A model generated the notes under the pieces. It was not told where the DNA came from and ran no database searches. It saw nothing but the letters and a program-made list of their open reading frames with translations. The translations under genes and the position numbers were made by a program. Shown here one piece after another: positions 2,938 through 24,259 of a stretch of 64,000 nucleotides of DNA. Source of the DNA: an uncultured Candidatus Saccharibacteria bacterium (lineage in GTDB: Bacteria > Patescibacteriota > Minisyncoccia > Phycocordibacterales > Phycocordibacteraceae). Within the stretch, counting starts at the first letter, position 1; each line of letters starts with the position of its first letter. The stretch is from contig CAZQGQ010000002.1 in assembly GCA_964593365.1 (NCBI GenBank), positions 21,671-85,670 on the forward strand, given 5' to 3'.

Positions 2938-3662
2938 CGACGTCAGGATTCCAGATACGGACCGAGGTGTACGAGGGACCTCTCGGGGTTCTGCTTGAGC
3001 TTATCCAAGAGAGGAAACTCCTGGTGAACGACTTCTCACTCTCTAAGGTCACCGATGAGTTCATTGCGTATGTGCGAGGACAAGGAAAGTTCCCGATAGA
3101 GGATGCTGCTGATTTCATTCAGATCGCCGCGACGCTGCTTCTCATAAAATCGAAGTCACTTATCCCTGACCTTGAACTCTCGGGAGACGAGGAGGAAGAC
3201 ATTGATGATCTCAAGCTCCGCTTGCTTGCCTATGAGCGGGCGAGGGAAGCAGCGAAAGAACTTTCCCGCATCTTCGGGCGCTCAGTGATGGTATCTGCGG
3301 GAGAACGCCTTCCAGACGTTGTCTTTGCGCCAAGCAAGGATATGACGCTTCAGAATCTTGAACGAGCGCTTCAGGAAGCACTCGCAGCGATGGAAAAGGA
3401 AGAAAAGCTTCCTGAGACACGCGTGCGCCCCATGGTCACTATCGAAGAGATGATGGATCGCCTGATGACGCGTGTACAAAGCGCACTCACTTTGTCTTTC
3501 TCTGAGTTTTCAGGAGGAGTGAAAGAGAAGGTGGAGGTGATCGTTTCGTTCCTAGCGATGCTTGAGCTTGTAAAGCAGGGAGCGATTGACGTTGCCCAGC
3601 ATGGGACGTTTTCGGAGATACGAATTACGAATACAACAGCGGATCTGCCTAAGTACGAATAG
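2925..3662 (+). CDS. scpA: Segregation and condensation protein A
   Basis: 245 aa. N-terminal YEGPLGVLLELIQ matches the ScpA FEGPLDLL signature. Confidence 0.8.
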   Translation: MESVATSGFQIRTEVYEGPLGVLLELIQERKLLVNDFSLSKVTDEFIAYVRGQGKFPIEDAADFIQIAATLLLIKSKSLIPDLELSGDEEEDIDDLKLRLLAYERAREAAKELSRIFGRSVMVSAGERLPDVVFAPSKDMTLQNLERALQEALAAMEKEEKLPETRVRPMVTIEEMMDRLMTRVQSALTLSFSEFSGGVKEKVEVIVSFLAMLELVKQGAIDVAQHGTFSEIRITNTTADLPKYE

Positions 3663-3665
3663 CGC

Positions 3666-4118
3666 ATGCCTCACATCCACGAAAAGATAGATTTCACCGT
3701 TGAGGTGTTTATCGTCCATAGGGATAAAGTTCTCCTAAGGAAGCACGACAAGTACGGCATCTGGCTTTCGATCGGCGGACACATCGAACTCGACGAAGAT
3801 CCAAACCAAGCTGCTCTTCGAGAGGTAAAGGAGGAAGTTGGTCTAGACATCGAACTCTATGACACCAGAGGCTTTACGCACGAGGAGAACGACTTTAAGG
3901 AACTCGTTGCTCCGATAGCACAGAACCGCCATAGGATCTCACCGACTCATGAGCACGTTAGTTCAGTGTACTTTGGGCGAGCTACATCAGACGTCGTTAT
4001 TCCAGAAAAGGAAACTGATGAGTGGAAATGGTATACGGTAGAAAACCTCGATACGCTTGATGGGATACGTCCCGACGTCGCTTATTACGCCAAACGCGCG
4101 ATCAAAGAGCTTTCGTAA
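3666..4118 (+). CDS. NUDIX hydrolase
   Basis: 150 aa. Nudix box GGHIELDEDPNQAALREVKEEVGL fits GX5EX7REUXEEXGU. Confidence 0.75.
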   Translation: MPHIHEKIDFTVEVFIVHRDKVLLRKHDKYGIWLSIGGHIELDEDPNQAALREVKEEVGLDIELYDTRGFTHEENDFKELVAPIAQNRHRISPTHEHVSSVYFGRATSDVVIPEKETDEWKWYTVENLDTLDGIRPDVAYYAKRAIKELS

Positions 4119-4886
4119 CTAAAGAACGACAAAAAAGAATAGGAGCGCAAGTACGATTCGGTAGACGCCGAAAGGAATAAACGTATGGCTTCGCACATAT
4201 TGGAGAAGGAACTTGATGGAAGCGAATGCAACGATAAAGGAAATCACGAATCCAACCGCAAGGAGACCGAAGTCGTCAGGTGTGAAGAGTCCTGCGCTCT
4301 TATAAAGATCGAGACCCGTTGCGGCAAACATGACGGGGACCGCAAGCAAGAACGAGAACTCGACGACCGCAACGCGTCCAACGCCAAGCAGCAAACCTCC
4401 GAGGATGGTTGCAGCAGAACGTGAGACTCCAGGGATAATAGCGAGTGACTGGCACACGCCGATCCAAAACGATTGCGTGTAGGAAATGTCTTTAGTTTCC
4501 TTAGCAGCGGATTCTGATTCCTTATGCAGGAGCTCGAACGCGATAAGCGCCACGCCTCCAAGCAAGAGTGCCCAGAGAACTACCTGCGTGTTCTCAAGCA
4601 GATATTCCTTAGCGAATCCATACAAGAGGAGACCGATCACTCCTGTCGGAATAAACGCGACGATGACGCGCTTGAGGATCGCAATATCAAGGAAAGAGCG
4701 CCAGTAGAGAGCAACCACAGCGAGAATGGCTCCGAGCTGTATGGCTATTTCAAAGCTCTTGAGAAACTCTGTTGAGGGAATGCCAAGAAGGTCACTTACC
4801 AGAATCAAGTGACCGGTAGAAGAAACCGGCAGAAATTCTGTGAGTCCTTCAACGACTCCCAAAATGATCGCGTCTAAATAGCTCAT
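4119..4886 (-). CDS. uppP: Undecaprenyl-diphosphatase (UppP/BacA)
   Basis: 255 aa polytopic membrane protein with the EGLTEFLPVSSTGHL signature. Confidence 0.9.
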   Translation of the reverse strand: MSYLDAIILGVVEGLTEFLPVSSTGHLILVSDLLGIPSTEFLKSFEIAIQLGAILAVVALYWRSFLDIAILKRVIVAFIPTGVIGLLLYGFAKEYLLENTQVVLWALLLGGVALIAFELLHKESESAAKETKDISYTQSFWIGVCQSLAIIPGVSRSAATILGGLLLGVGRVAVVEFSFLLAVPVMFAATGLDLYKSAGLFTPDDFGLLAVGFVISFIVAFASIKFLLQYVRSHTFIPFGVYRIVLALLFFFVVL

Positions 4887-4912
4887 GTGGCCCCTAGTAT
4901 ACCGCGAGCGCT

Positions 4913-5497
4913 TTGCCCCAAGGGCTTAGCGCGGTATTCTGTAGCCTATCTATGCAGCTTACGCCCCCAGCACTCCTTGAAGCGCTCCTCTTCTCTGCAG
5001 GAGAGCCAATAGCCAAAAAGCGCCTTGCATCCCTCATTGGGGTCACTCCTGACATGCTCGAGAAGGCAGTTGAAGTCCTCAAAGATGACCTAGCGACTCG
5101 AGGTCTTTCTTTAGTTGAAACGGACGACGAGCTTGAGCTTCGCACCTCGCCTGAAGCAGCTGATTTTGTGAAAAAGCTCCGAGAGGCAGAACTGTCACGC
5201 GACCTTGGAAAGGCAAGCCTTGAGACACTTGCGATCGTGCTCTATAAGGGAAGCGCAACTCGAGGAGAGATCGATTGGGTGCGAGGCGTGAATTCGTCTG
5301 CAGCACTCCGCTCCCTTATGCTTCGCGGACTGGTTGAGCGAACCGAAGACACGACTGACCGACGTCGTGCTCGTTATAAGACCACCATCGATGCGCTTGC
5401 GCACCTTGGCGTTACCGAACGCTCCGCGCTCCCGCGCTATGAGGAACTGACCGGCATGCTTGATGAGCGAGCAGTCTCTGAAGAAACACCTGCATGA
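4913..5497 (+). CDS. scpB: Segregation and condensation protein B
   Basis: 194 aa. ALLFSAGEP motif and tandem winged-helix pattern. The true start may be the internal Met near 4952. Confidence 0.8.
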   Translation: MPQGLSAVFCSLSMQLTPPALLEALLFSAGEPIAKKRLASLIGVTPDMLEKAVEVLKDDLATRGLSLVETDDELELRTSPEAADFVKKLREAELSRDLGKASLETLAIVLYKGSATRGEIDWVRGVNSSAALRSLMLRGLVERTEDTTDRRRARYKTTIDALAHLGVTERSALPRYEELTGMLDERAVSEETPA

Positions 5498-6432
5498 TTA
5501 ATCTCGGACACATCTTCTCGAAGCTTCAGGCACGCGAACACGCTGGGCTTTTCTTTGCAGGTCTTGCGCTTGTGCTTGCTGTAGGCGCGCTTGGTACCGC
5601 TCAGTTTCTTGCGCGTCCAGAACCGGTGGTCGTTGAAACTCCAGCGCCAGCGCCAAATCCATACGGGAAGGTCGTGCTTACTGCTAAAGCAGCGATCGTG
5701 TACGACCTCATAACCGGCGAGGTGCTCTACGAGAAGAACGCGGAAGCCCAGCTCCCACTTGCGTCTCTCACAAAGCTTTTGACCTTGTACGCAGCAGCTG
5801 ACGCACTTGCCGGAGGAGCGCCAGTCCCGATGACTGCGGCTTCGCTTGCCCAAGAAGGAGATAACGGATTTAGCGAAGGAGAGCGATTCACATTCACCGA
5901 ACTTGCAAAGCTTGCTCTGGTCGCTTCATCAAATGACGCGGCTGATGCTATTGCCGTTGCCGCAGAGAGAAGCCGAGGAATGGATAAGGAACAATTGCTT
6001 GCGGCAGCGGGAAGCGCCGTTGGGCTTTCGCAGACCTACACGCTAAACGGAACAGGACTTGATGAAAGCAGCATCATTTCAGGCGGCTATGGATCCGCAC
6101 GCGATATGGCGCTTCTTGCAGGAGCCTTTCTTGAGCGCGTTCCTGGAATTGCCAGGGCAACATTGAACGCAACAGTGTCTGCAACCTCCCTTGATGGCCG
6201 CTCCTACACGCTTGAGAACACGAACCCCGAAGTCTCTACTATCCCAGGACTGCGCCTTTCAAAGACAGGGTATACGGATCTTGCAGGCGGGAACCTCGCG
6301 ATCGTCTTTGATGCTGGAATGAACCATCCGATCGCCGTGGTCGTTCTTGGCTCGACGCGGGAGGAACGATTTAGCGACGTTGATAAGCTCGTTCGCGCAA
6401 CAGCTTCTTCCTTTGCAGGACTCCTTCCATGA
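5494..6432 (+). CDS. D-alanyl-D-alanine carboxypeptidase, S11 penicillin-binding family
   Basis: 312 aa. N-terminal membrane anchor, then SxxK (SLTKLLT), SxN (SSNDAA) and KTG (KTGYT) motifs. Confidence 0.75.
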   Translation: MINLGHIFSKLQAREHAGLFFAGLALVLAVGALGTAQFLARPEPVVVETPAPAPNPYGKVVLTAKAAIVYDLITGEVLYEKNAEAQLPLASLTKLLTLYAAADALAGGAPVPMTAASLAQEGDNGFSEGERFTFTELAKLALVASSNDAADAIAVAAERSRGMDKEQLLAAAGSAVGLSQTYTLNGTGLDESSIISGGYGSARDMALLAGAFLERVPGIARATLNATVSATSLDGRSYTLENTNPEVSTIPGLRLSKTGYTDLAGGNLAIVFDAGMNHPIAVVVLGSTREERFSDVDKLVRATASSFAGLLP

Positions 6433-7490
6433 TTCTCGACGCCGCACGAGTCCTGATTCCGTTCATCCTCGCCTTTGCGACAGGAATCATACTCGCGCCC
6501 CTACTCGCTAACGAGCTCTACCGCAGGAAAGCCTGGAAGAAGAAAGCAGGGAAGGGAAACGGAATGGGAGATGAAAACGGCACTCCTTTGTTTGATGAAC
6601 TGCATCGGGAGCATGAGATGCGTGCGCCTCGCATGGGCGGCATGTTGGTATGGGCATCGGTTGCCTTAACCGCCTTTGGACTCGTGATTCTCGCATATTT
6701 GTTTAATGGCGTGTTCTCGCTTCTTGATTTCGTGAATCGCGGACAAACGTGGCTTCCGCTTGTCGCGCTCCTGGTTGGCGGGGTCGCTGGCTTATTCGAT
6801 GACTTCCTAGAAGTGAAAAGCGGGACGGGAGGACTTAAGCTTCGTTGGAGACTTTTAGTTGTAGCTATCATGGGCGCGTTTGCAGGCTGGTGGTTTTTTG
6901 AAAAGCTTGGCGTCTCCGCAGTCGGCCTGCCGTTCTTTGGTCCCTTCGAACTTGGTCTTCTGTTCATTCCGTTTTTCATACTGGTAACACTGGCTTTGTA
7001 CGCAAGCGGAGTAATAGACGGGATTGATGGACTTGCCGGGGGCGTGTTCGCGATTATCTTCATGGCCTATGCGGGAATCGCGTTTGCACAAAACCAGATC
7101 GCACTCTCGGCCTTTGCAGCAGCGGTTTCTGGCGGCTTGTTCGCATTCCTCTGGTTTAACGTGCCGCCTGCGCGCTTCTACCTTTCCGAGACCGGAACGA
7201 TGGCGCTCACGCTCGCGCTTGCCGTAACCGCCTTTTCAACCGACGTGCTTGGGGATGGGGTAGGGGTGGGTGTTCTTCCCTTTATCGCGCTTCCGCTTGC
7301 AGCCACCGTCGGTACGAGCGTTCTCCAGGTGCTCTGGAAGAAAATATGGAAGAAGAAGCTGTTTCGCATCGCTCCTATCCATCATCACTTTGAAGCGGTC
7401 GGCTGGCCGCCTTACAAGGTGACTATGCGCTATTGGATCATCACGATTATCGCGAGCGTGTTTGGTCTTGCGATGGCGCTTTTGAAATAA
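6429..7490 (+). CDS. mraY: Phospho-N-acetylmuramoyl-pentapeptide transferase
   Basis: 353 aa. DDxxE-type LFDDFLEV, GIDGLAGG and HHHFE motifs with multiple transmembrane segments. Confidence 0.9.
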   Translation: MILDAARVLIPFILAFATGIILAPLLANELYRRKAWKKKAGKGNGMGDENGTPLFDELHREHEMRAPRMGGMLVWASVALTAFGLVILAYLFNGVFSLLDFVNRGQTWLPLVALLVGGVAGLFDDFLEVKSGTGGLKLRWRLLVVAIMGAFAGWWFFEKLGVSAVGLPFFGPFELGLLFIPFFILVTLALYASGVIDGIDGLAGGVFAIIFMAYAGIAFAQNQIALSAFAAAVSGGLFAFLWFNVPPARFYLSETGTMALTLALAVTAFSTDVLGDGVGVGVLPFIALPLAATVGTSVLQVLWKKIWKKKLFRIAPIHHHFEAVGWPPYKVTMRYWIITIIASVFGLAMALLK

Positions 7491-12923: not shown

Positions 12924-13078
12924 AGATGAGTTCTAGAAAGAAATGTCTAGGATACAGAGAAAGCGCCACCGTCGGGGTTTACGATGGGCGGTACGGGAAG
13001 TGCAAAAATGTGCGCTTTCGTATTCATGTTTAAGCAGAATAGCTTAGAAGTTCTAATAAATCAAGTACGTTATATAGG

Positions 13079-13104
13079 TTTCAACATTGTCCCATACAGC
13101 CAGC
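13079..13104 (+). repeat. Island box copy 1 (TTTCAACATTGTCCCATACAGCCAGC)
   Basis: Followed by TATAAT, then 6 nt, then the ATG at 13117. Confidence 0.6.
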
Positions 13105-13116
13105 TATAATAACGGT

Positions 13117-13923
13117 ATGGACAGCACTTCTGCCTCCGACCTTACGAAACGCAATAAAGAAGTCATTCAAAGATTTATTGACTCGGTTAGAGACCGTGCA
13201 GACGGCGTTTTGCTTAGCGGGTCAAACGCCTGGGGAGCGGACTATGCGGTTACCGAGAAATCGGATATCGATCTCTTGGTCCTGGCAAAGGATATCCAAG
13301 GCATGAAGAAAATAATCGATTGCTATATCAGTAATAAATTACTTGTACCTAGGGAGCAAGAACGATTTGAAGCATTTAGCGCGCTATATGAGGAAGGAAG
13401 AGTAGAACAATTTTCTGTGATTGCAGACTATAAGGGTGTTCCGGTGAGCATAGATTTCTTTACCACAAAAACATTACAGTGGATCAGTTTCTTAACTTCA
13501 AAAAATACTGTTCTTCTTAACGGCGTGAGAGTGAGAGTCGTAAGCGAGTTGCGAACAAATCCTCCAAAAGCTTTCGGCTATTCTCTTGATGATTTACAAA
13601 GCTCAAAGAAACTTACCTATCATCCGGTGTTCGAAGAAATAAAAAGTCAGAAAGGCAATGTCTGTGGGTACCTCGCGCAAACTGCAGTCGATGCCTCTGA
13701 TGAACATACTTACTATCTTGGCGTCATGTCGTTTTTCCTTTGTGTCAGTCCGGTCGTGCTATTAGATAAAAACGGCGAACTGCAACGAGCTATACGAGAT
13801 TTGCGAACAAACATCTCAATTCTTTTGAAAGGGGAAGTTCCTCGCCATGTGACAAGAGAAGAACGAATGTCTGAGCAGGTCTTAGAAGAGGTAAAGAATG
13901 CCCTTAGTCCTAAGGGAGCCTAA
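13117..13923 (+). CDS. Pol-beta superfamily nucleotidyltransferase (antibiotic or nucleotide NTase-like; specificity unknown)
   Basis: 268 aa from the ATG at 13117. The track opens at a TTG at 13087 that lies inside the upstream box. GS-x14-DID motif (LSGSNAWGADYAVTEKSDIDLLVL) with a downstream acidic residue (VSIDFF). The helical C-terminal half is similar in size to ANT/Lnu-type or Abi-type NTases. GC is lower than in the core genes. Confidence 0.55.
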   Translation: MDSTSASDLTKRNKEVIQRFIDSVRDRADGVLLSGSNAWGADYAVTEKSDIDLLVLAKDIQGMKKIIDCYISNKLLVPREQERFEAFSALYEEGRVEQFSVIADYKGVPVSIDFFTTKTLQWISFLTSKNTVLLNGVRVRVVSELRTNPPKAFGYSLDDLQSSKKLTYHPVFEEIKSQKGNVCGYLAQTAVDASDEHTYYLGVMSFFLCVSPVVLLDKNGELQRAIRDLRTNISILLKGEVPRHVTREERMSEQVLEEVKNALSPKGA

Positions 13924-13928
13924 AAAGA

Positions 13929-13954
13929 TTCCAACATCGTCTCAGGCAGCCAGC
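13929..13954 (+). repeat. Island box copy 2 (TTCCAACATCGTCTCAGGCAGCCAGC)
   Basis: Lies between the convergent NTase and transglutaminase-like genes. Followed by a weak TATTTT. Confidence 0.55.
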
Positions 13955-14451
13955 TATTTTCTACGTTCATTCTCTAACCACTCGTTAAAAGCAGCATAGA
14001 ACTCTCCGTTGAGAGCAAGGTCTTTATTAATGACCTCCACGTTCTCATCGGCGATAATTGCAGCACTTTCTTTAATGGAGAACAATTTTAAACAAGAAAC
14101 CGCGATAGACGTGTTCGACTTTCCGTCCCACTCACTGACAGGAAGAATCATACTCAAAGAATTATCCCAGGTCGCATCGACATTAATCCAGTCTTTTTCA
14201 TTAAGTACCTCAAGGTATGCATGGGTAGAAGCATCTTCGTGAGCCTTTCCTGACACCTCAACGGGAAGATTGATATCGCTCCATTTGAAGGAACATACGC
14301 GCCATCGTACCTGAAGCCCCTCCTTCTCAAGAAGCGACTTAAGCTGCTTATGTTTACCGGTACAGGATTTGTCAGTTTCCTTCGAGGTTAGCGGAATTCG
14401 ATAGGGAATATCCCGAACCTGATTGAAAATCTCACGTAGGTCGGCTCTCAT
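13954..14451 (-). CDS. Transglutaminase-like / papain-fold cysteine peptidase domain protein
   Basis: 165 aa. Putative Cys nucleophile in SCTGKH, then the H-A-Y-L-E-V ... W-I-N-V-D-A-T-W-D block characteristic of the transglutaminase-like core (Cys-His-Asp). Upstream on its own strand lies TTGGAA-16nt-TAGCAT-6nt-ATG. Confidence 0.5.
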   Translation of the reverse strand: MRADLREIFNQVRDIPYRIPLTSKETDKSCTGKHKQLKSLLEKEGLQVRWRVCSFKWSDINLPVEVSGKAHEDASTHAYLEVLNEKDWINVDATWDNSLSMILPVSEWDGKSNTSIAVSCLKLFSIKESAAIIADENVEVINKDLALNGEFYAAFNEWLENERRK

Positions 14452-19739: not shown

Positions 19740-20232
19740 CGAAGAACGCTCCAGCATAGCTAGAGCGTAAAAACCGACGCGAGGGTCAAGGTGGGCGATG
19801 TGCGGCGGGAAAGCAATTTACCGGACCCGCACAAACATCAACCCTCGCATCGGCGACGGCACGGGAAGCATTAGGGCCGAGAGGGAGGAACGGGGCGGGG
19901 ATGTTCCTAACTCGAAGCTTGTCTGCAACCCGTGACGCTTCGAGGATATTGGACTAGGGAACCAGCTGTGTCAAGAATGTTTTACTTTCAGTATTAGACA
20001 GGGAAGTCAGGTACAGAAAACGCCCCCGAAAAGTTGGAGGCGCAAATGCGGACATGGGAACCAAGGGAGCATAGTCGTGCTGCACGAATCGCGGTGTGGT
20101 AGCGGACACCATTTGCCTTCACGACTACCTTGGCCCCATGCCGCAGACAGATACTAGGCTTTATGAAGTATCTCGTCAAATGGAGGCTTCACTACAACAC
20201 ATCTCGGTCGACCGAGATTAGGTTCTAGAGCA
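19740..20232. other. 490-nt ORF-free GC-rich region with several perfect stem-loops (candidate structured ncRNA; class not identified)
   Basis: Nested helices GCGAGGGT(19778)/ACCCTCGC(19848) enclosing GTGCGG/CCGCAC. Further hairpins CTCGAAGC/GCTTCGAG (19911-19942) and AGGAAC/GTTCCT. An 18-bp palindrome lies at 20201-20218. On the minus strand the large stem is followed by GTCGGTTTTT. Confidence 0.3.
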
Positions 20233-20496
20233 GTGTATGCTTATAGAATGGACTTTAACGCAATGCCTAAGCTTATATGTGATGCCTGGCACCTGAATAA
20301 CAATCGGGTGTGGTTCTTCTTCGGTTTTACCTCAGGAACTGATAAATCAGCCCTCCTTCTCAGTCCTAAAGGCGCTAAGGGCTTCCTTCTCGAGCTCCAG
20401 AAGCGAATTACTAAGTACGAGAAAGACCATGGGGAGATAGATATGACCGGCCATCAAGCAGGAATTCAGTCTCCAATACAAATAAAGCCGGAGTAA
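20233..20496 (+). CDS. Hypothetical protein (87 aa)
   Basis: ORF directly downstream of the perfect palindrome. No recognisable motif. Confidence 0.35.
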   Translation: MYAYRMDFNAMPKLICDAWHLNNNRVWFFFGFTSGTDKSALLLSPKGAKGFLLELQKRITKYEKDHGEIDMTGHQAGIQSPIQIKPE

Positions 20497-20842
20497 AGGA
20501 TCAGAAGCCGTTTTCCTTGTTCCCTTAGGAGTACTTCGCAAAAGATATATTGTGCGAAGGTCTTATATTTTAGGTCAGATAAGCTTAGGGATCTCCGTTC
20601 AATATGTCTTCCCCACCTAATGAGCAGTCTTTATAACTTAAACTGGTTATGCGAACACTCGCTCTCATTTCTCCACTTTGTAAAAGATGTACTGCTATAA
20701 ATCCCCTCTCAGTAGGGTACTGGGGGAGAGTTGAGAGACGATTTAGGTAAAAAACTGAAAAAGATCTCTGACTCCCCTACCCTAATCTATTTCACTAAAA
20801 TCGACACCTTTAACATTTGAGTGTTCAGTTGAAAGAAATTAA

Positions 20843-21511
20843 CTAAAATAACTTCTTTCTACTTTCTTTCATCACCTTAACCCCTGGTTTCGCATACTCA
20901 ATTGATTCCATCCGAGCCAAATCTGCGTGAGGGACAGCTTCCAACTCCTCAGTTAATTCGCTACAAAGAACGTCAAATCTTGATTCAACGTACATTCTCG
21001 TTTTTGTAATCAGCAACTCAAGGTTTTGTATATTTTCTGAAGTATTCATTTCTGCACTAAAACTCACACCTATAATCTTAGCTATCTTGAAAGGCGCTCC
21101 TGGCTTATTAATCACTGCGCCTGGTAGACATTGCATTAAAGGGTTATCATCGTGAGCTATATTTTTATCCCTTAGATCCTTGAAAAACTCGAAAACTTCC
21201 TGACCCATAAGGTCTCCTTTTAGGACCTCTTCCTTGAATAGCTGCGTAGCTCTTGCATTATTTTTTCCAAAACATTTAAGAAAACTAATCACAGCCAACC
21301 GCCAGAAGACTTTTTGTTCAAGGCTTCTATCTTCTGCATTCTTCAAAGCTACCAAACAGTCTTGAGCTGTTATCAGATCGTGTCTGTGGAGAGTCATATC
21401 TGCCAACTCCTGGGCTTTCTTGCCTCGCAGCGCGACTGCTTTAAGTGCGTCCGGGAAGTCAGTTAGACGCAGACCTGTTCCCTCTTGGTGCTCAATGTTT
21501 AATTGCTGCAT
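20843..21511 (-). CDS. Hypothetical protein with a putative HEPN-like Rx5H motif (third gene of the AT-rich operon)
   Basis: 222 aa. Strong SD (GGAGGGGAAG) 8 nt upstream. Sequence FFKDLRDKNIAHDDNP contains R-x5-H. GC about 38-40%. Confidence 0.45.
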   Translation of the reverse strand: MQQLNIEHQEGTGLRLTDFPDALKAVALRGKKAQELADMTLHRHDLITAQDCLVALKNAEDRSLEQKVFWRLAVISFLKCFGKNNARATQLFKEEVLKGDLMGQEVFEFFKDLRDKNIAHDDNPLMQCLPGAVINKPGAPFKIAKIIGVSFSAEMNTSENIQNLELLITKTRMYVESRFDVLCSELTEELEAVPHADLARMESIEYAKPGVKVMKESRKKLF

Positions 21512-21551
21512 ACCAGCATCCTACTTCCCCTCCCTCTCTAAACAAACATAT

Positions 21552-21887
21552 CTAAGAACCAAGAATATCTTTCAAAACTTGATCAAAACCGTGCAATTTG
21601 CCCTGCAGAACACCAAAAAGGGTGGTCAACTTTTCTTTACCTTCAGGACCGAAAACGTCTTCTCCAAAACGAAGGTAAGTTTGCTCGTCTTCTTTTGAAG
21701 CGTAGAAGTACATATGATAATCTCCGTCTTCATCTTGCATTATTGACCATAAGTATTTATTGCCGGGATAAGTAAAGAAATATTCTTCTGCGTTCTCGAC
21801 AGGTGTTGTAGGTTTTCGCACTGATTGGATTTGATCCTGATCAGATAACATTTTTTTCACAACGTCTTGTATTTGTTTGTCATTCAT
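21552..21887 (-). CDS. Hypothetical protein (second gene of the AT-rich operon)
   Basis: 111 aa from the internal ATG, which lies 1 nt after the upstream stop. The track ORF extends to 21920. Acidic, Tyr-rich, no known motif. Confidence 0.4.
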   Translation of the reverse strand: MNDKQIQDVVKKMLSDQDQIQSVRKPTTPVENAEEYFFTYPGNKYLWSIMQDEDGDYHMYFYASKEDEQTYLRFGEDVFGPEGKEKLTTLFGVLQGKLHGFDQVLKDILGS

Positions 21888-21888
21888 A

Positions 21889-22404
21889 TTATTTTTGTTG
21901 TTTTGAAGTATGATTTTCAATCTCTAAGGTTGTGAGTCGTTCCTTCAACTCCGTGCATAAACTTATTTTATCCGTTTCATTAACTGTTCGTCCAGCATCC
22001 AGTTCATCTATCATTATTTTAATAGGTTTTAACACTTTTGTACCCATGTGTTTTTGTAATATTTCGTTTCCACGAATCTTTCCATGAATACGAGCAAGGG
22101 TTACTCGCACAGCACGTGGGTTAGGAGGGTCTTCGATTGAATGCTCATTTAACTTCTCTATTAAGTGATTTAAATCTGAAAGAGAGGTTCTTAAAGAATA
22201 ACTAAGTAACAGGGAAAAGGCTGCAGAAATCTTCTTTCTCTGTGTTAAGCCGATAACGAACGCAGCAATACCAAGTAGAACCTGAACAATGTCAGCGCTA
22301 AATGATGTCAAGGCAACTATGAATGTTGCAGTGCTGGTGGACACTAATCTAAAATAGCATAAAAAATCGAGCCGCCCGTAATCTCTTGTACCGACTTCGT
22401 ACAA
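21889..22404 (-). CDS. Hypothetical membrane protein, 2 TM plus a cytoplasmic domain (first gene of the AT-rich operon)
   Basis: 171 aa. Hydrophobic helices FIVALTSFSADIVQVLLGIAAFVIGL. Confidence 0.4.
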   Translation of the reverse strand: MYEVGTRDYGRLDFLCYFRLVSTSTATFIVALTSFSADIVQVLLGIAAFVIGLTQRKKISAAFSLLLSYSLRTSLSDLNHLIEKLNEHSIEDPPNPRAVRVTLARIHGKIRGNEILQKHMGTKVLKPIKIMIDELDAGRTVNETDKISLCTELKERLTTLEIENHTSKQQK

Positions 22405-22440
22405 CGCAGATTGTGCACCTCCTGTTATACTCCTGGCTAT

Positions 22441-22917
22441 ATGGCAGAGAACGGCGAACCAGACGGCAAATCTAAGCTTATAAAGGAGTTAGAGGTCGCT
22501 GGCCAACTTGAGTCTATTAAGACGCAACTCACAACCGCGGTTGAGAAGCGTAAACGCGCTCGAGAGTTCCTAGCGATCCGAAAGGACATTCTCACCAGGC
22601 TTGAAGAGAAGTTCGCTGCAAACCCCAATATCACGAAAGGAGAAGTCGTTTTGGACATAGGAGCATGGGCAACGACCGAAGAAGAGATGCATAAAAACAA
22701 TTCCAAGGCTACGGAGATTTTTGAGAAACTTACTGCCTCGTATCCAGAAGAAGATCTTGATGAGGACGTTCCTGAAAACGATACGGATCAAGAAGGTCTC
22801 GATACCCTTTCAAACGAGTTCCAAGACCTAACGCTCCTGGTCTTTCAAGAAACACAAGAAATGGAGCCGCAGGTGCAGCGTCTCCGAGTACTCATAGACA
22901 AGCTACGACAGTCTTAG
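22441..22917 (+). CDS. Hypothetical acidic coiled-coil protein, divergent from the AT-rich operon
   Basis: About 158 aa from MAENGEPD. The track opens at 22411. Strongly acidic C-terminal half (EEDLDEDVPENDTDQEGLD). Confidence 0.4.
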   Translation: MAENGEPDGKSKLIKELEVAGQLESIKTQLTTAVEKRKRAREFLAIRKDILTRLEEKFAANPNITKGEVVLDIGAWATTEEEMHKNNSKATEIFEKLTASYPEEDLDEDVPENDTDQEGLDTLSNEFQDLTLLVFQETQEMEPQVQRLRVLIDKLRQS

Positions 22918-23663
22918 CACTGCGTGTTCGCGACGATGTACTCGTACGCTTCATCTACTGAATCAACGAGCTTGTAGAGATCCATATCCGCCTCATCGAT
23001 CGCGTGATACTGCTCATAGAGCTTCGTCTTGAAGTGGTGCAAGACTGGTGTCCAGTATTCCTTACCGTAGAGCACGATCGGAATCTTCTTTATGTTCCTC
23101 GTCTGCACAAGCGTAAGGATCTCTGTGAACTCGTCCATGGTGCCAAAACCTCCTGGGAAGTAGATGTAGACCTCAGAAGCAAACGTAAGCATCACCTTGC
23201 GCACGAAGAAGTGATCGAACATGAGCTGCTCCGTGACGTAGCGGTTGGTGGACTGGTTGTCTGCGAGGCGGATATTCAAACCAACAGATGCACCTCCCGC
23301 TTCAAATGCCCCGCGATTGGCTGCTTCCATGATGCCTGAAGCGCCTCCGGTAATGATCGAGAACCCGCGCTTGGAAAGGCGCGCTGCAAGATCCGTCGCG
23401 TCTTGGTAGAGCTTGCTGTCAAAGGTTGCACGGGTAGTACCGAAAAAAGATGCTGCAAGCGCGTGCTTTTGCAGGAGTTCGAATCCTTCCACGAATTCGG
23501 ACATGATCTTGAATACGCGCCACGGTTCAAGCTCGCGAGGCTTACACACCAGAGGATTAGGCTCCTCGGGTACCGAGCCCTTCCCTTCCTCGACCATGCG
23601 CGCGACTTTGAGCCCCATCTGCTGATGCTCTGCCGGTGTTTTTGGTTTCAAGTCGTCAGCCAT
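22914..23663 (-). CDS. LOG-family protein (cytokinin riboside 5'-monophosphate phosphoribohydrolase-like; TIGR00730)
   Basis: 249 aa. ITGGASGIMEAANRGA and FPGGFGTMDEFTEIL motifs. Confidence 0.8.
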   Translation of the reverse strand: MADDLKPKTPAEHQQMGLKVARMVEEGKGSVPEEPNPLVCKPRELEPWRVFKIMSEFVEGFELLQKHALAASFFGTTRATFDSKLYQDATDLAARLSKRGFSIITGGASGIMEAANRGAFEAGGASVGLNIRLADNQSTNRYVTEQLMFDHFFVRKVMLTFASEVYIYFPGGFGTMDEFTEILTLVQTRNIKKIPIVLYGKEYWTPVLHHFKTKLYEQYHAIDEADMDLYKLVDSVDEAYEYIVANTQC

Positions 23664-24259
23664 GGTATGTCGTATGAATCAAAGTCTGGTATCAGTTTCT
23701 TATTATACGCCATGCGCGAGATAACCTCGGCGTGGAGAAGCGCTCCCATAAGCGCGTTATGAGGCTTGGGTTCCTCAGGAAGCCCGCAATAGCGGAGAAT
23801 GAACCCGAGATCCATAAGTGAGCGGTGGCTCCCTTCTGGAGGCGTCATGCCCTGCTTGGTCATATGAAGCCAGGCAACGCTGTGTACGTCGATGGTGCGC
23901 TTAGCAAACGGGAAATCGATACCAGCTCGCCTACAGGCAGAAGCGACAAATTCAAAGTCAAAGGAGACATTCTGAGCTGCGAAGGTTCGATTCTCTGGCC
24001 TATCGGTTGCCCAGGCGACAAACGCTTTTACGAGCTCTGCTTCGCTTTGTCGAGCAGGGTCCTGTGCTTCTTCTTTGGTAAACCCGTTAATTGCGAGCGC
24101 TGCCTCTTCGATCTTTGCCCCATCCCATGCACGACATTCTCCATAGAACTGATTCGTCGGGTCGCTAAGATCGAGCGCCCCAAGGGAGAGTATTGAGTGC
24201 TGGTCGGGACGGAGCCCTGTTGTCTCTACATCAAGAACGATCATGTCTTTGGTTCCCAA
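23648..24259 (-). CDS. DEDDh 3'-5' exonuclease (DnaQ/oligoribonuclease-like)
   Basis: 203 aa. Exo I VLDVETTGL, Exo II AQNVSFDFEF and Exo III HNALMGALL. Confidence 0.75.
   Translation of the reverse strand: MGTKDMIVLDVETTGLRPDQHSILSLGALDLSDPTNQFYGECRAWDGAKIEEAALAINGFTKEEAQDPARQSEAELVKAFVAWATDRPENRTFAAQNVSFDFEFVASACRRAGIDFPFAKRTIDVHSVAWLHMTKQGMTPPEGSHRSLMDLGFILRYCGLPEEPKPHNALMGALLHAEVISRMAYNKKLIPDFDSYDIPWLTT

Follow-up and report, generated by a model that had tools for sequence, protein, structure and literature searches.

The four-gene architecture of a small AT-rich islet, at about 20.5-22.9 kb of a 64,000-nucleotide (nt) stretch of contig CAZQGQ010000002.1 from an uncultured Candidatus Saccharibacteria bacterium (the whole stretch is called the window), is an accident of adjacency. 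The explanation that we favour, with somewhat better than even confidence, is that the islet is composed of independent adjacent units, and that its gene for a 222-amino-acid (aa) protein encodes a stand-alone, divergent HEPN ribonuclease (RNase) and travels as mobile single-gene cargo.

Three of the four genes, encoding a small membrane protein, a 111-aa protein and the 222-aa protein, are on the minus strand, and the fourth, encoding an acidic 158-aa protein, is divergent. An earlier reading made from the letters alone (the sequence-only reading) had placed four open reading frames (ORFs) here, all of which are present in the ORF list, and had viewed them as one multi-component cassette. On that view the three minus-strand products, and perhaps the acidic protein too, make up one abortive-infection or toxin-antitoxin system with the 222-aa protein as its nuclease. 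The three minus-strand genes are co-directional, with a gap of 1 nt between the stop codon of the membrane gene and the ATG of the 111-aa gene, exactly as had been described, and of 40 nt between the 111-aa and 222-aa genes. No terminator-like hairpin was identified between them in a hairpin scan, and the trough in guanine plus cytosine (GC) content is common to all three. However, relatives of the 222-aa protein were collected from approximately 27 non-redundant loci outside this genome, drawn from metagenomes, species genomes, IMG/VR viral contigs and plasmids (L-numbers below denote collected loci), and the membrane, 111-aa or acidic gene was present in none of them, as judged by tblastn and clustering. 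The membrane and 111-aa genes were twice seen together without the 222-aa gene, and no PADLOC model fits any component. The one-system explanation is thus largely refuted by the lack of co-occurrence, we consider it very unlikely, and the modules are independent. Close spacing and a common low GC content in one genome hinted at an operon-level system; the comparative data disagree.

A narrower version, in which the acidic 111-aa protein has been recruited in this genome only as an antitoxin for the 222-aa protein, appears highly improbable. A gene for a small acidic protein indeed precedes the 222-aa gene by 40 nt in the same orientation, but genomes without the 222-aa gene also keep the 111-aa protein, paired with the membrane protein, and the 222-aa family is generally without an upstream partner.

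The 222-aa protein belongs to a large family. A word-indexed protein search returned 11 close homologs, and a HMMER profile search of 1.84 billion representatives returned 1478 clusters at E ≤ 1e-3 and 234 at E ≤ 1e-30. The members are single-domain proteins, nearly all of 215-228 aa. The few longer members differ only in low-complexity stretches added at the N terminus, apparently the result of mis-called starts, and domain fusions were rejected on these grounds. The family is not covered by any model in Pfam, NCBIfam, PHROGs or PADLOC. The matches on four plasmids are all recorded as "hypothetical protein", and one member bears the IMG label "uncharacterized protein with HEPN domain". It is this large, unannotated family of ~220 aa that is new, as a structurally decorated HEPN-like variant and not as a new type of system.

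The sequence-only reading had drawn attention to LRDKNIAHDD, which is present at residues 113-122 (nt 21146-21175), as a weak fit to the HEPN motif. Conservation was counted in an alignment of 130 diverse members. Residues D45, R87, R114, H120 and D121 are invariant (130/130), and H42, K79, C80, F81, K116 and N123 are nearly so. The spacing from R114 to H120 is fixed at five in all 130, in keeping with the Rx4-6H motif of HEPN proteins, and the residue after the arginine is N in 75, D in 47 and H in 4 members (126/130), matching the polar N, D or H found directly after the motif arginine in the HEPN superfamily (PMC3710099). What had been one motif in one protein is thereby a signature of the whole family, R-[ND]-K-x3-H-D-x-N. 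Given the invariant R and H, the HEPN-like flanks and the HEPN-like place in the predicted structure, the motif is no chance match.

An AlphaFold model of the 222-aa protein built from the 130-sequence alignment reached a predicted local distance difference test score (pLDDT) of 96.2 and a predicted template modelling score (pTM) of 0.89. It supersedes an earlier model from 11 sequences, which was poor (pLDDT 68) and gave generic Foldseek matches. The model comprises an N-terminal beta-hairpin, helices at 31-58 and 64-79, a 20-residue insert, a helix at 101-118, a beta-hairpin at 126-152 and a long helix at 158-191. R114 is located near the end of helix 101-118, the third long helix, and H120 just past it, at the start of a loop. 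The HEPN superfamily is described as a four-helix up-down bundle with a frequent insert between helices 2 and 3 and a catalytic motif at the end of the third helix region; in Csx1 a beta-hairpin lies right behind the motif (PMC3710099). The modelled helix order, insert, motif place and post-motif hairpin, together with the polar residue, are compatible with this description. The helix-order fit was read from the order of the elements, and Foldseek comparison with HEPN chains gave E 0.8-3 and TM-scores of 0.3-0.4.

The genomic contexts of the relatives are those of a gene that moves alone. Clustering by BLAST of the genes within 4-5 kb of each relative identified no recurrent neighbour across the collected loci, and the genes directly flanking the relative change from locus to locus. 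A conserved small adjacent partner, as expected of a type II toxin-antitoxin pair, is absent across these loci. At least 15 of the ~27 loci adjoin integrases, phage genes, restriction-modification genes, TIR, HNH or plasmid-transfer genes. Tyrosine integrases are near the relative in L009, L011, L022, L030, L034, L036 and L046. Other neighbours include Vsr, HaeII endonuclease, C5 methylase and ThsB-TIR with 8xMP (L011), Vsr alone (L013), a PLD-helicase (L009), HNH (L020), Schlafen/AlbA_2 (L014), and a CD_NTase_C gene with methylase and Vsr (L047/L048). In L033 the relative is inserted between the P2-like baseplate genes gpW and gpV, in L029 it is just behind a phage lysis module, in L032 it adjoins phage gpD, and in L044 it is on a conjugative plasmid near the relaxase. 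The gene is carried by 12 IMG/VR viral contigs. Several relatives adjoin the integrase/excisionase-like module of integrative elements, some of which resemble enterobacterial satellites. The GC content of the gene was below that of its flanks in 11 of 11 measured loci (for example 35.9 vs 49.7, 34.6 vs 48.8 and 45.9 vs 63.3%). These contexts form the pattern expected of single-gene mobile cargo, and the abortive-infection-like setting proposed earlier is supported for the 222-aa gene, whose relatives occur in mobile-element and defence contexts.

A number of results weigh against a mobile HEPN RNase. Neither profile nor fold searches matched a HEPN family or structure significantly. The Pfam family HEPN_AbiU2 (PF18734) scored 12.1 bits on the 222-aa protein, against a gathering cut-off of 26.8 (E 0.13), over residues 102-122 only, and was matched by just 5 of the 130 members, at a best E of 0.016. 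The family and sub-family consensus sequences matched no HEPN model in Pfam, HEPN_AbiU2 included. The best E in a Foldseek search of the PDB was 0.1, and the HEPN matches were intermixed with generic helical bundles; a BFVD structure search returned nothing significant, and hidden Markov model (HMM) searches of PDB sequences returned nothing beyond a Staufen double-stranded RNA-binding domain (dsRBD) match, dismissed as chance. Alignment of the family with a DUF86 HEPN toxin from L015 by hhalign gave a probability of just 0.35%. The acidic E-x3-[KR] element in helix 2, present in many though not all HEPN families (PMC3710099), is not conserved, with E67 in 50/130 and R71 in 62/130 members and K67 in the protein studied here; the invariant acid of the family is D45, in helix 1 and not helix 2. 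As for mobility, some relatives, other Saccharibacteria ones included, stand singly amid housekeeping genes (behind fusA in L008, near Mur ligases in L051), and searches of GenBank phage genomes and complete E. coli genomes found no relatives. A free-standing RNase toxin without a conserved inhibitor would also need some means of control.

On the other side, HEPN_AbiU2 was the most recurrent weak Pfam match, always over the motif region, and was also matched by one distant Vibrio relative. The HEPN toxin chains 7AE6, 7AE8 and 7AE9 recur among the top non-significant Foldseek matches, in the range of E and TM-score given above for HEPN chains. As no fold or profile search was significant, HEPN membership is likely rather than proven; from the motif and the modelled topology, the family probably belongs to the superfamily. 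The sequence-only reading had held that singly scattered homologs and the lack of a HEPN fold would count against it. The homologs are indeed scattered singly, and no HEPN fold match is significant, yet the topology is compatible with HEPN.

The alternative that the family is not HEPN but a novel helical fold, for example anti-defence, regulatory or nucleotide-binding, in which R...HD binds a ligand or metal, was considered and seems rather unlikely. It would account for the lack of a significant structure or profile match to HEPN or anything else. A metal could be bound by the invariant H-D together with the conserved H42 and D45, and phage or satellite cargo suits counter-defence as well as defence. 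However, HD-domain structures are abundant, and the HD-domain reading of the invariant H-D was rejected because no HD-family match was found in Pfam or PDB.

Under the HEPN assignment, the 222-aa protein would be a divergent, metal-independent endoribonuclease of HEPN type. Its putative active site would consist of R114 and H120, aided by D115, K116 and D121 and by two residues in other parts of the helical bundle, D45 and R87, and would most likely be formed across a dimer. The gene may act as a single-gene abortive-infection or exclusion factor, as has been proposed for the lactococcal AbiD/F and AbiU2. Its carriers would be prophages, satellites or integrative elements, and plasmids, and in this genome it would have landed beside unrelated accessory genes. 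The analysis shows directly the modular make-up of the islet and the size, conservation pattern, predicted secondary structure and genomic contexts of the family; HEPN homology, RNase activity, a role in defence and any function of the membrane and 111-aa pair are inferred.

Compared with known systems, the 222-aa family most resembles the HEPN abortive-infection proteins (AbiD/AbiF, AbiU2, AbiJ; Anantharaman et al. 2013, PMC3710099). In common with them it has invariant R-x5-H with N, D or H after the R and, in the model, four helices with an insert separating the second from the third and the motif where the third ends; like them it occurs as single-gene cargo near restriction-modification genes and on prophages; AbiU2 is the sole recurring Pfam family, albeit weak and over the motif region. 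Unlike these proteins, the 222-aa family has no significant sequence or fold match to a named HEPN family, has an extra N-terminal beta-hairpin and a further beta-hairpin right after the motif, and has invariant D121, D45 (helix 1) and R87 in place of a conserved helix-2 E-x3-[KR].

The HEPN-MNT toxin (HepT-MntA; PDB 7AE6/7AE8/7AE9) is of the class that recurs best among the top Foldseek matches (E 0.8-3), and is likewise a small helical RNase with an Rx4-6H motif. It differs in size (~130-150 aa, against 220 aa in the 222-aa family) and the TM-scores are just 0.3-0.4; moreover, no nucleotidyltransferase antitoxin gene adjoins the 222-aa gene, either in the window or in any of the relatives' loci. 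The MNT/DUF86-like pair in L015 is separate, ~1 kb from the relative, and was recognised by motif only. In contrast to the Csx1/Csm6 HEPN proteins, the 222-aa protein has no CARF domain, CRISPR-Cas neighbourhood or sequence match, although its model has the post-motif beta-hairpin of Csx1. Finally, the relatives resemble the cargo of the prophage and P4-like satellite defence hotspots described in Rousset et al. 2022 (PMC9122126) in being single, variable, low-GC genes at integrase/excisionase-like modules or between P2-like structural genes, and differ in that none was found in E. coli complete genomes and no PADLOC model applies. PADLOC-DB v2 gave no match to the three minus-strand proteins, and only three single, weak, unrelated matches to the 130 family members.

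Several neighbourhoods of the relatives were recorded in their own right. L011 holds a compact defence island at 3525-6897, in which a ThsB-type TIR and the 8xMP octameric membrane protein are followed by Vsr, HaeII endonuclease and C5 methylase. At 5846-8836 of L047/L048 the family member is followed by a gene for a 281-aa protein, whose sole match is to the C-terminal CD-NTase domain (PF26305), and then by an HTH_17 gene, C5 methylase, Vsr and a 1002-aa HATPase_c_3 protein. A gene for an RNase_T/DEDDh exonuclease of ~204 aa lies 130 nt upstream of the relative in L049 (4256-4870) and L050 (1280-1894). The window has an RNase_T-like exonuclease of the same size 2.1 kb upstream on the same strand (23648-24259; 22% identity, pairwise E 7e-10). 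This exonuclease was rejected as a family partner, as it does not recur at other loci.

The membrane and 111-aa genes constitute a second unit. The homologs and gene callers favour a membrane product of 151 aa from the GTG at 22344, with one N-terminal transmembrane segment and a ~95-aa soluble helical tail. The sequence-only reading had given it two transmembrane segments. A single clear hydrophobic segment was identified in this protein and in both of its homologs (Kyte-Doolittle score above 1.6 over 19 residues), and the second stretch, ISAAFSLLLSYSL, scores just 0.8-1.3 and is thus amphipathic. The 111-aa protein is Tyr-rich and acidic, as had been said (7 Tyr, isoelectric point (pI) 4.6). 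The two homologs of the membrane protein have 59% and 52% identity, and directly behind each is a gene for a protein of 108-111 aa, with 45% and 41% identity to the 111-aa protein (L024 and L027). The genes are separated by a 1-nt gap in L024 and overlap by 8 nt in L027, and neither locus contains a 222-aa relative or the acidic gene. This recurrence in two other candidate-phyla genomes without the 222-aa gene marks the pair as an independent, translationally coupled two-gene module.

No match to the pair was found in family libraries or solved structures. A word-indexed search returned the 111-aa protein alone despite the presence in the collection of two homologs of 41-45% identity, and its finding of no relatives was therefore treated with caution. 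As to function, a membrane-anchored effector with a soluble partner is our guess, and one possibility is a toxin and its partner in a module that only candidate-phyla bacteria have. Alternatively, though we would not expect it, the pair may serve the cell envelope or housekeeping in this particular lineage of candidate-phyla bacteria and have no part in conflict. It was found in three related small genomes only and gave no matches in viral contigs. In L027 the gene for ribosomal protein L9 directly precedes it, and the window also has this gene upstream and co-directional, 3.1 kb away. Against a housekeeping role, the GC content of the pair is below that of the flanks in all three genomes (37.5 vs 52, 38.2 vs 42.2 and 34.6 vs 47.7%), and the pair is very rare among 5.8 billion proteins in a search of limited sensitivity.

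The divergent 158-aa protein is highly acidic, as previously noted (pI 4.6, 35 D/E). It forms a singleton cluster, with no homolog in the fetched loci, no match in family libraries or structures, and only marginal matches of 40 aa in viral contigs; no search of the large protein databases was made with it. PADLOC matches to "2TM effector" and BrxA (E 0.014-0.036) were dismissed as chance.

The features of the islet are listed in Table 1. The 1-kb bin at 21-22 kb is the GC minimum of the window (39.5%, compared with 52.3% overall), in agreement with the earlier description. At a finer scale, a trough of 35-45% extends across ~20500-22400 and covers all three minus-strand genes. The acidic gene had been included in the low-GC cassette; its GC content is ~47.6% and it is thus not really within the trough. 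The trough gives the islet the foreign-looking, accessory character that had been ascribed to it. No att-like direct or inverted repeats bounding the islet were found. Its genes have their closest relatives in genome bins of Candidatus Saccharibacteria, and the host is probably a small-genome candidate-phyla bacterium. Another low-GC bin, at 13001-14000 (41.9%, second lowest in the window), may be a further accessory insertion.

Table 1. Positions of the islet features within the window.
Feature	Position	Strand	Basis and remarks
Gene for 222-aa protein	20843..21511	-	ORF list; member of a large, unnamed, single-domain family of ~220 aa; candidate HEPN-type RNase
RDKNIAHDDN, codons R114-N123, with the R-[ND]-K-x3-H-D-x-N core motif	21143..21172	-	Alignment and predicted structure
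Translation-start region of the 222-aa gene: GGGAGGGG (21534-21527), mini-ORF, ATG 21511	21499..21534	-	Direct reading of the sequence
Gene for 111-aa acidic, Tyr-rich protein, second of the conserved pair	21552..21887	-	ORF (ATG); homologs in L024 and L027
Gene for small membrane protein, first of the pair	21889..22404	-	Longest ORF 171 aa; likely product 151 aa
Gene for 158-aa acidic protein, divergent	22441..22917	+	ORF list

A strong Shine-Dalgarno site had been assigned to the 222-aa gene. The sequence, GGAGGGGAAG, is present at 21533-21524, but 17 nt, a long spacing, separate its GGAGG core from the ATG of the 222-aa gene. The core is better placed, at an ideal 7 nt, ahead of an out-of-frame ATG at 21519. 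This ATG opens a mini-ORF of 6 codons, MLVCSN*, which ends with the TAA at 21499 and overlaps the 222-aa start codon at 21511. A weaker AGGA is present 7 nt ahead of the true 222-aa ATG. The GGGAGGGG element with its mini-ORF could be a leader or coupling device, or could be due to chance.

Downstream of the 222-aa gene, an 87-aa ORF (82 aa in the JGI call) is present at 20233-20496 on the plus strand, within an otherwise non-coding 1.1 kb. It has a sub-threshold match to DUF3467 (E 0.0037), and no homologs were seen in the other fetched loci. The ~490 nt between the gene for a 288-aa Ig-like protein and ORF87 (19740-20232) fold far better than shuffled sequence, with a fold z of -7.9 on the minus strand and -5.7 on the plus strand, and are a structured-RNA candidate. 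This stretch gave no match to Rfam, even at E ≤ 10, or to tRNA or tmRNA, and no known RNAs were identified near the cassette (Rfam gathering and permissive modes, ARAGORN). Terminator-like hairpins are present on its minus strand at 20043-20020 and 19768-19746. With a GC content of 50-55% it lies outside the AT-rich islet, and it was not found beside the 222-aa relatives elsewhere.

More tentatively, and as a possibility to which we give less weight than to its negation, the ~220-aa family may represent a new and widespread single-gene anti-phage defence, a self-regulated HEPN-like RNase with a distinctive double beta-hairpin, which prophages, satellites and plasmids would have distributed among candidate-phyla bacteria, cyanobacteria, actinobacteria and proteobacteria. 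If its members are active stand-alone HEPN RNases, a sizeable unannotated family would join the single-gene abortive-infection and exclusion factors, and such cargo would reach the ultra-small genomes of candidate-phyla bacteria, whose defence repertoires are poorly known.

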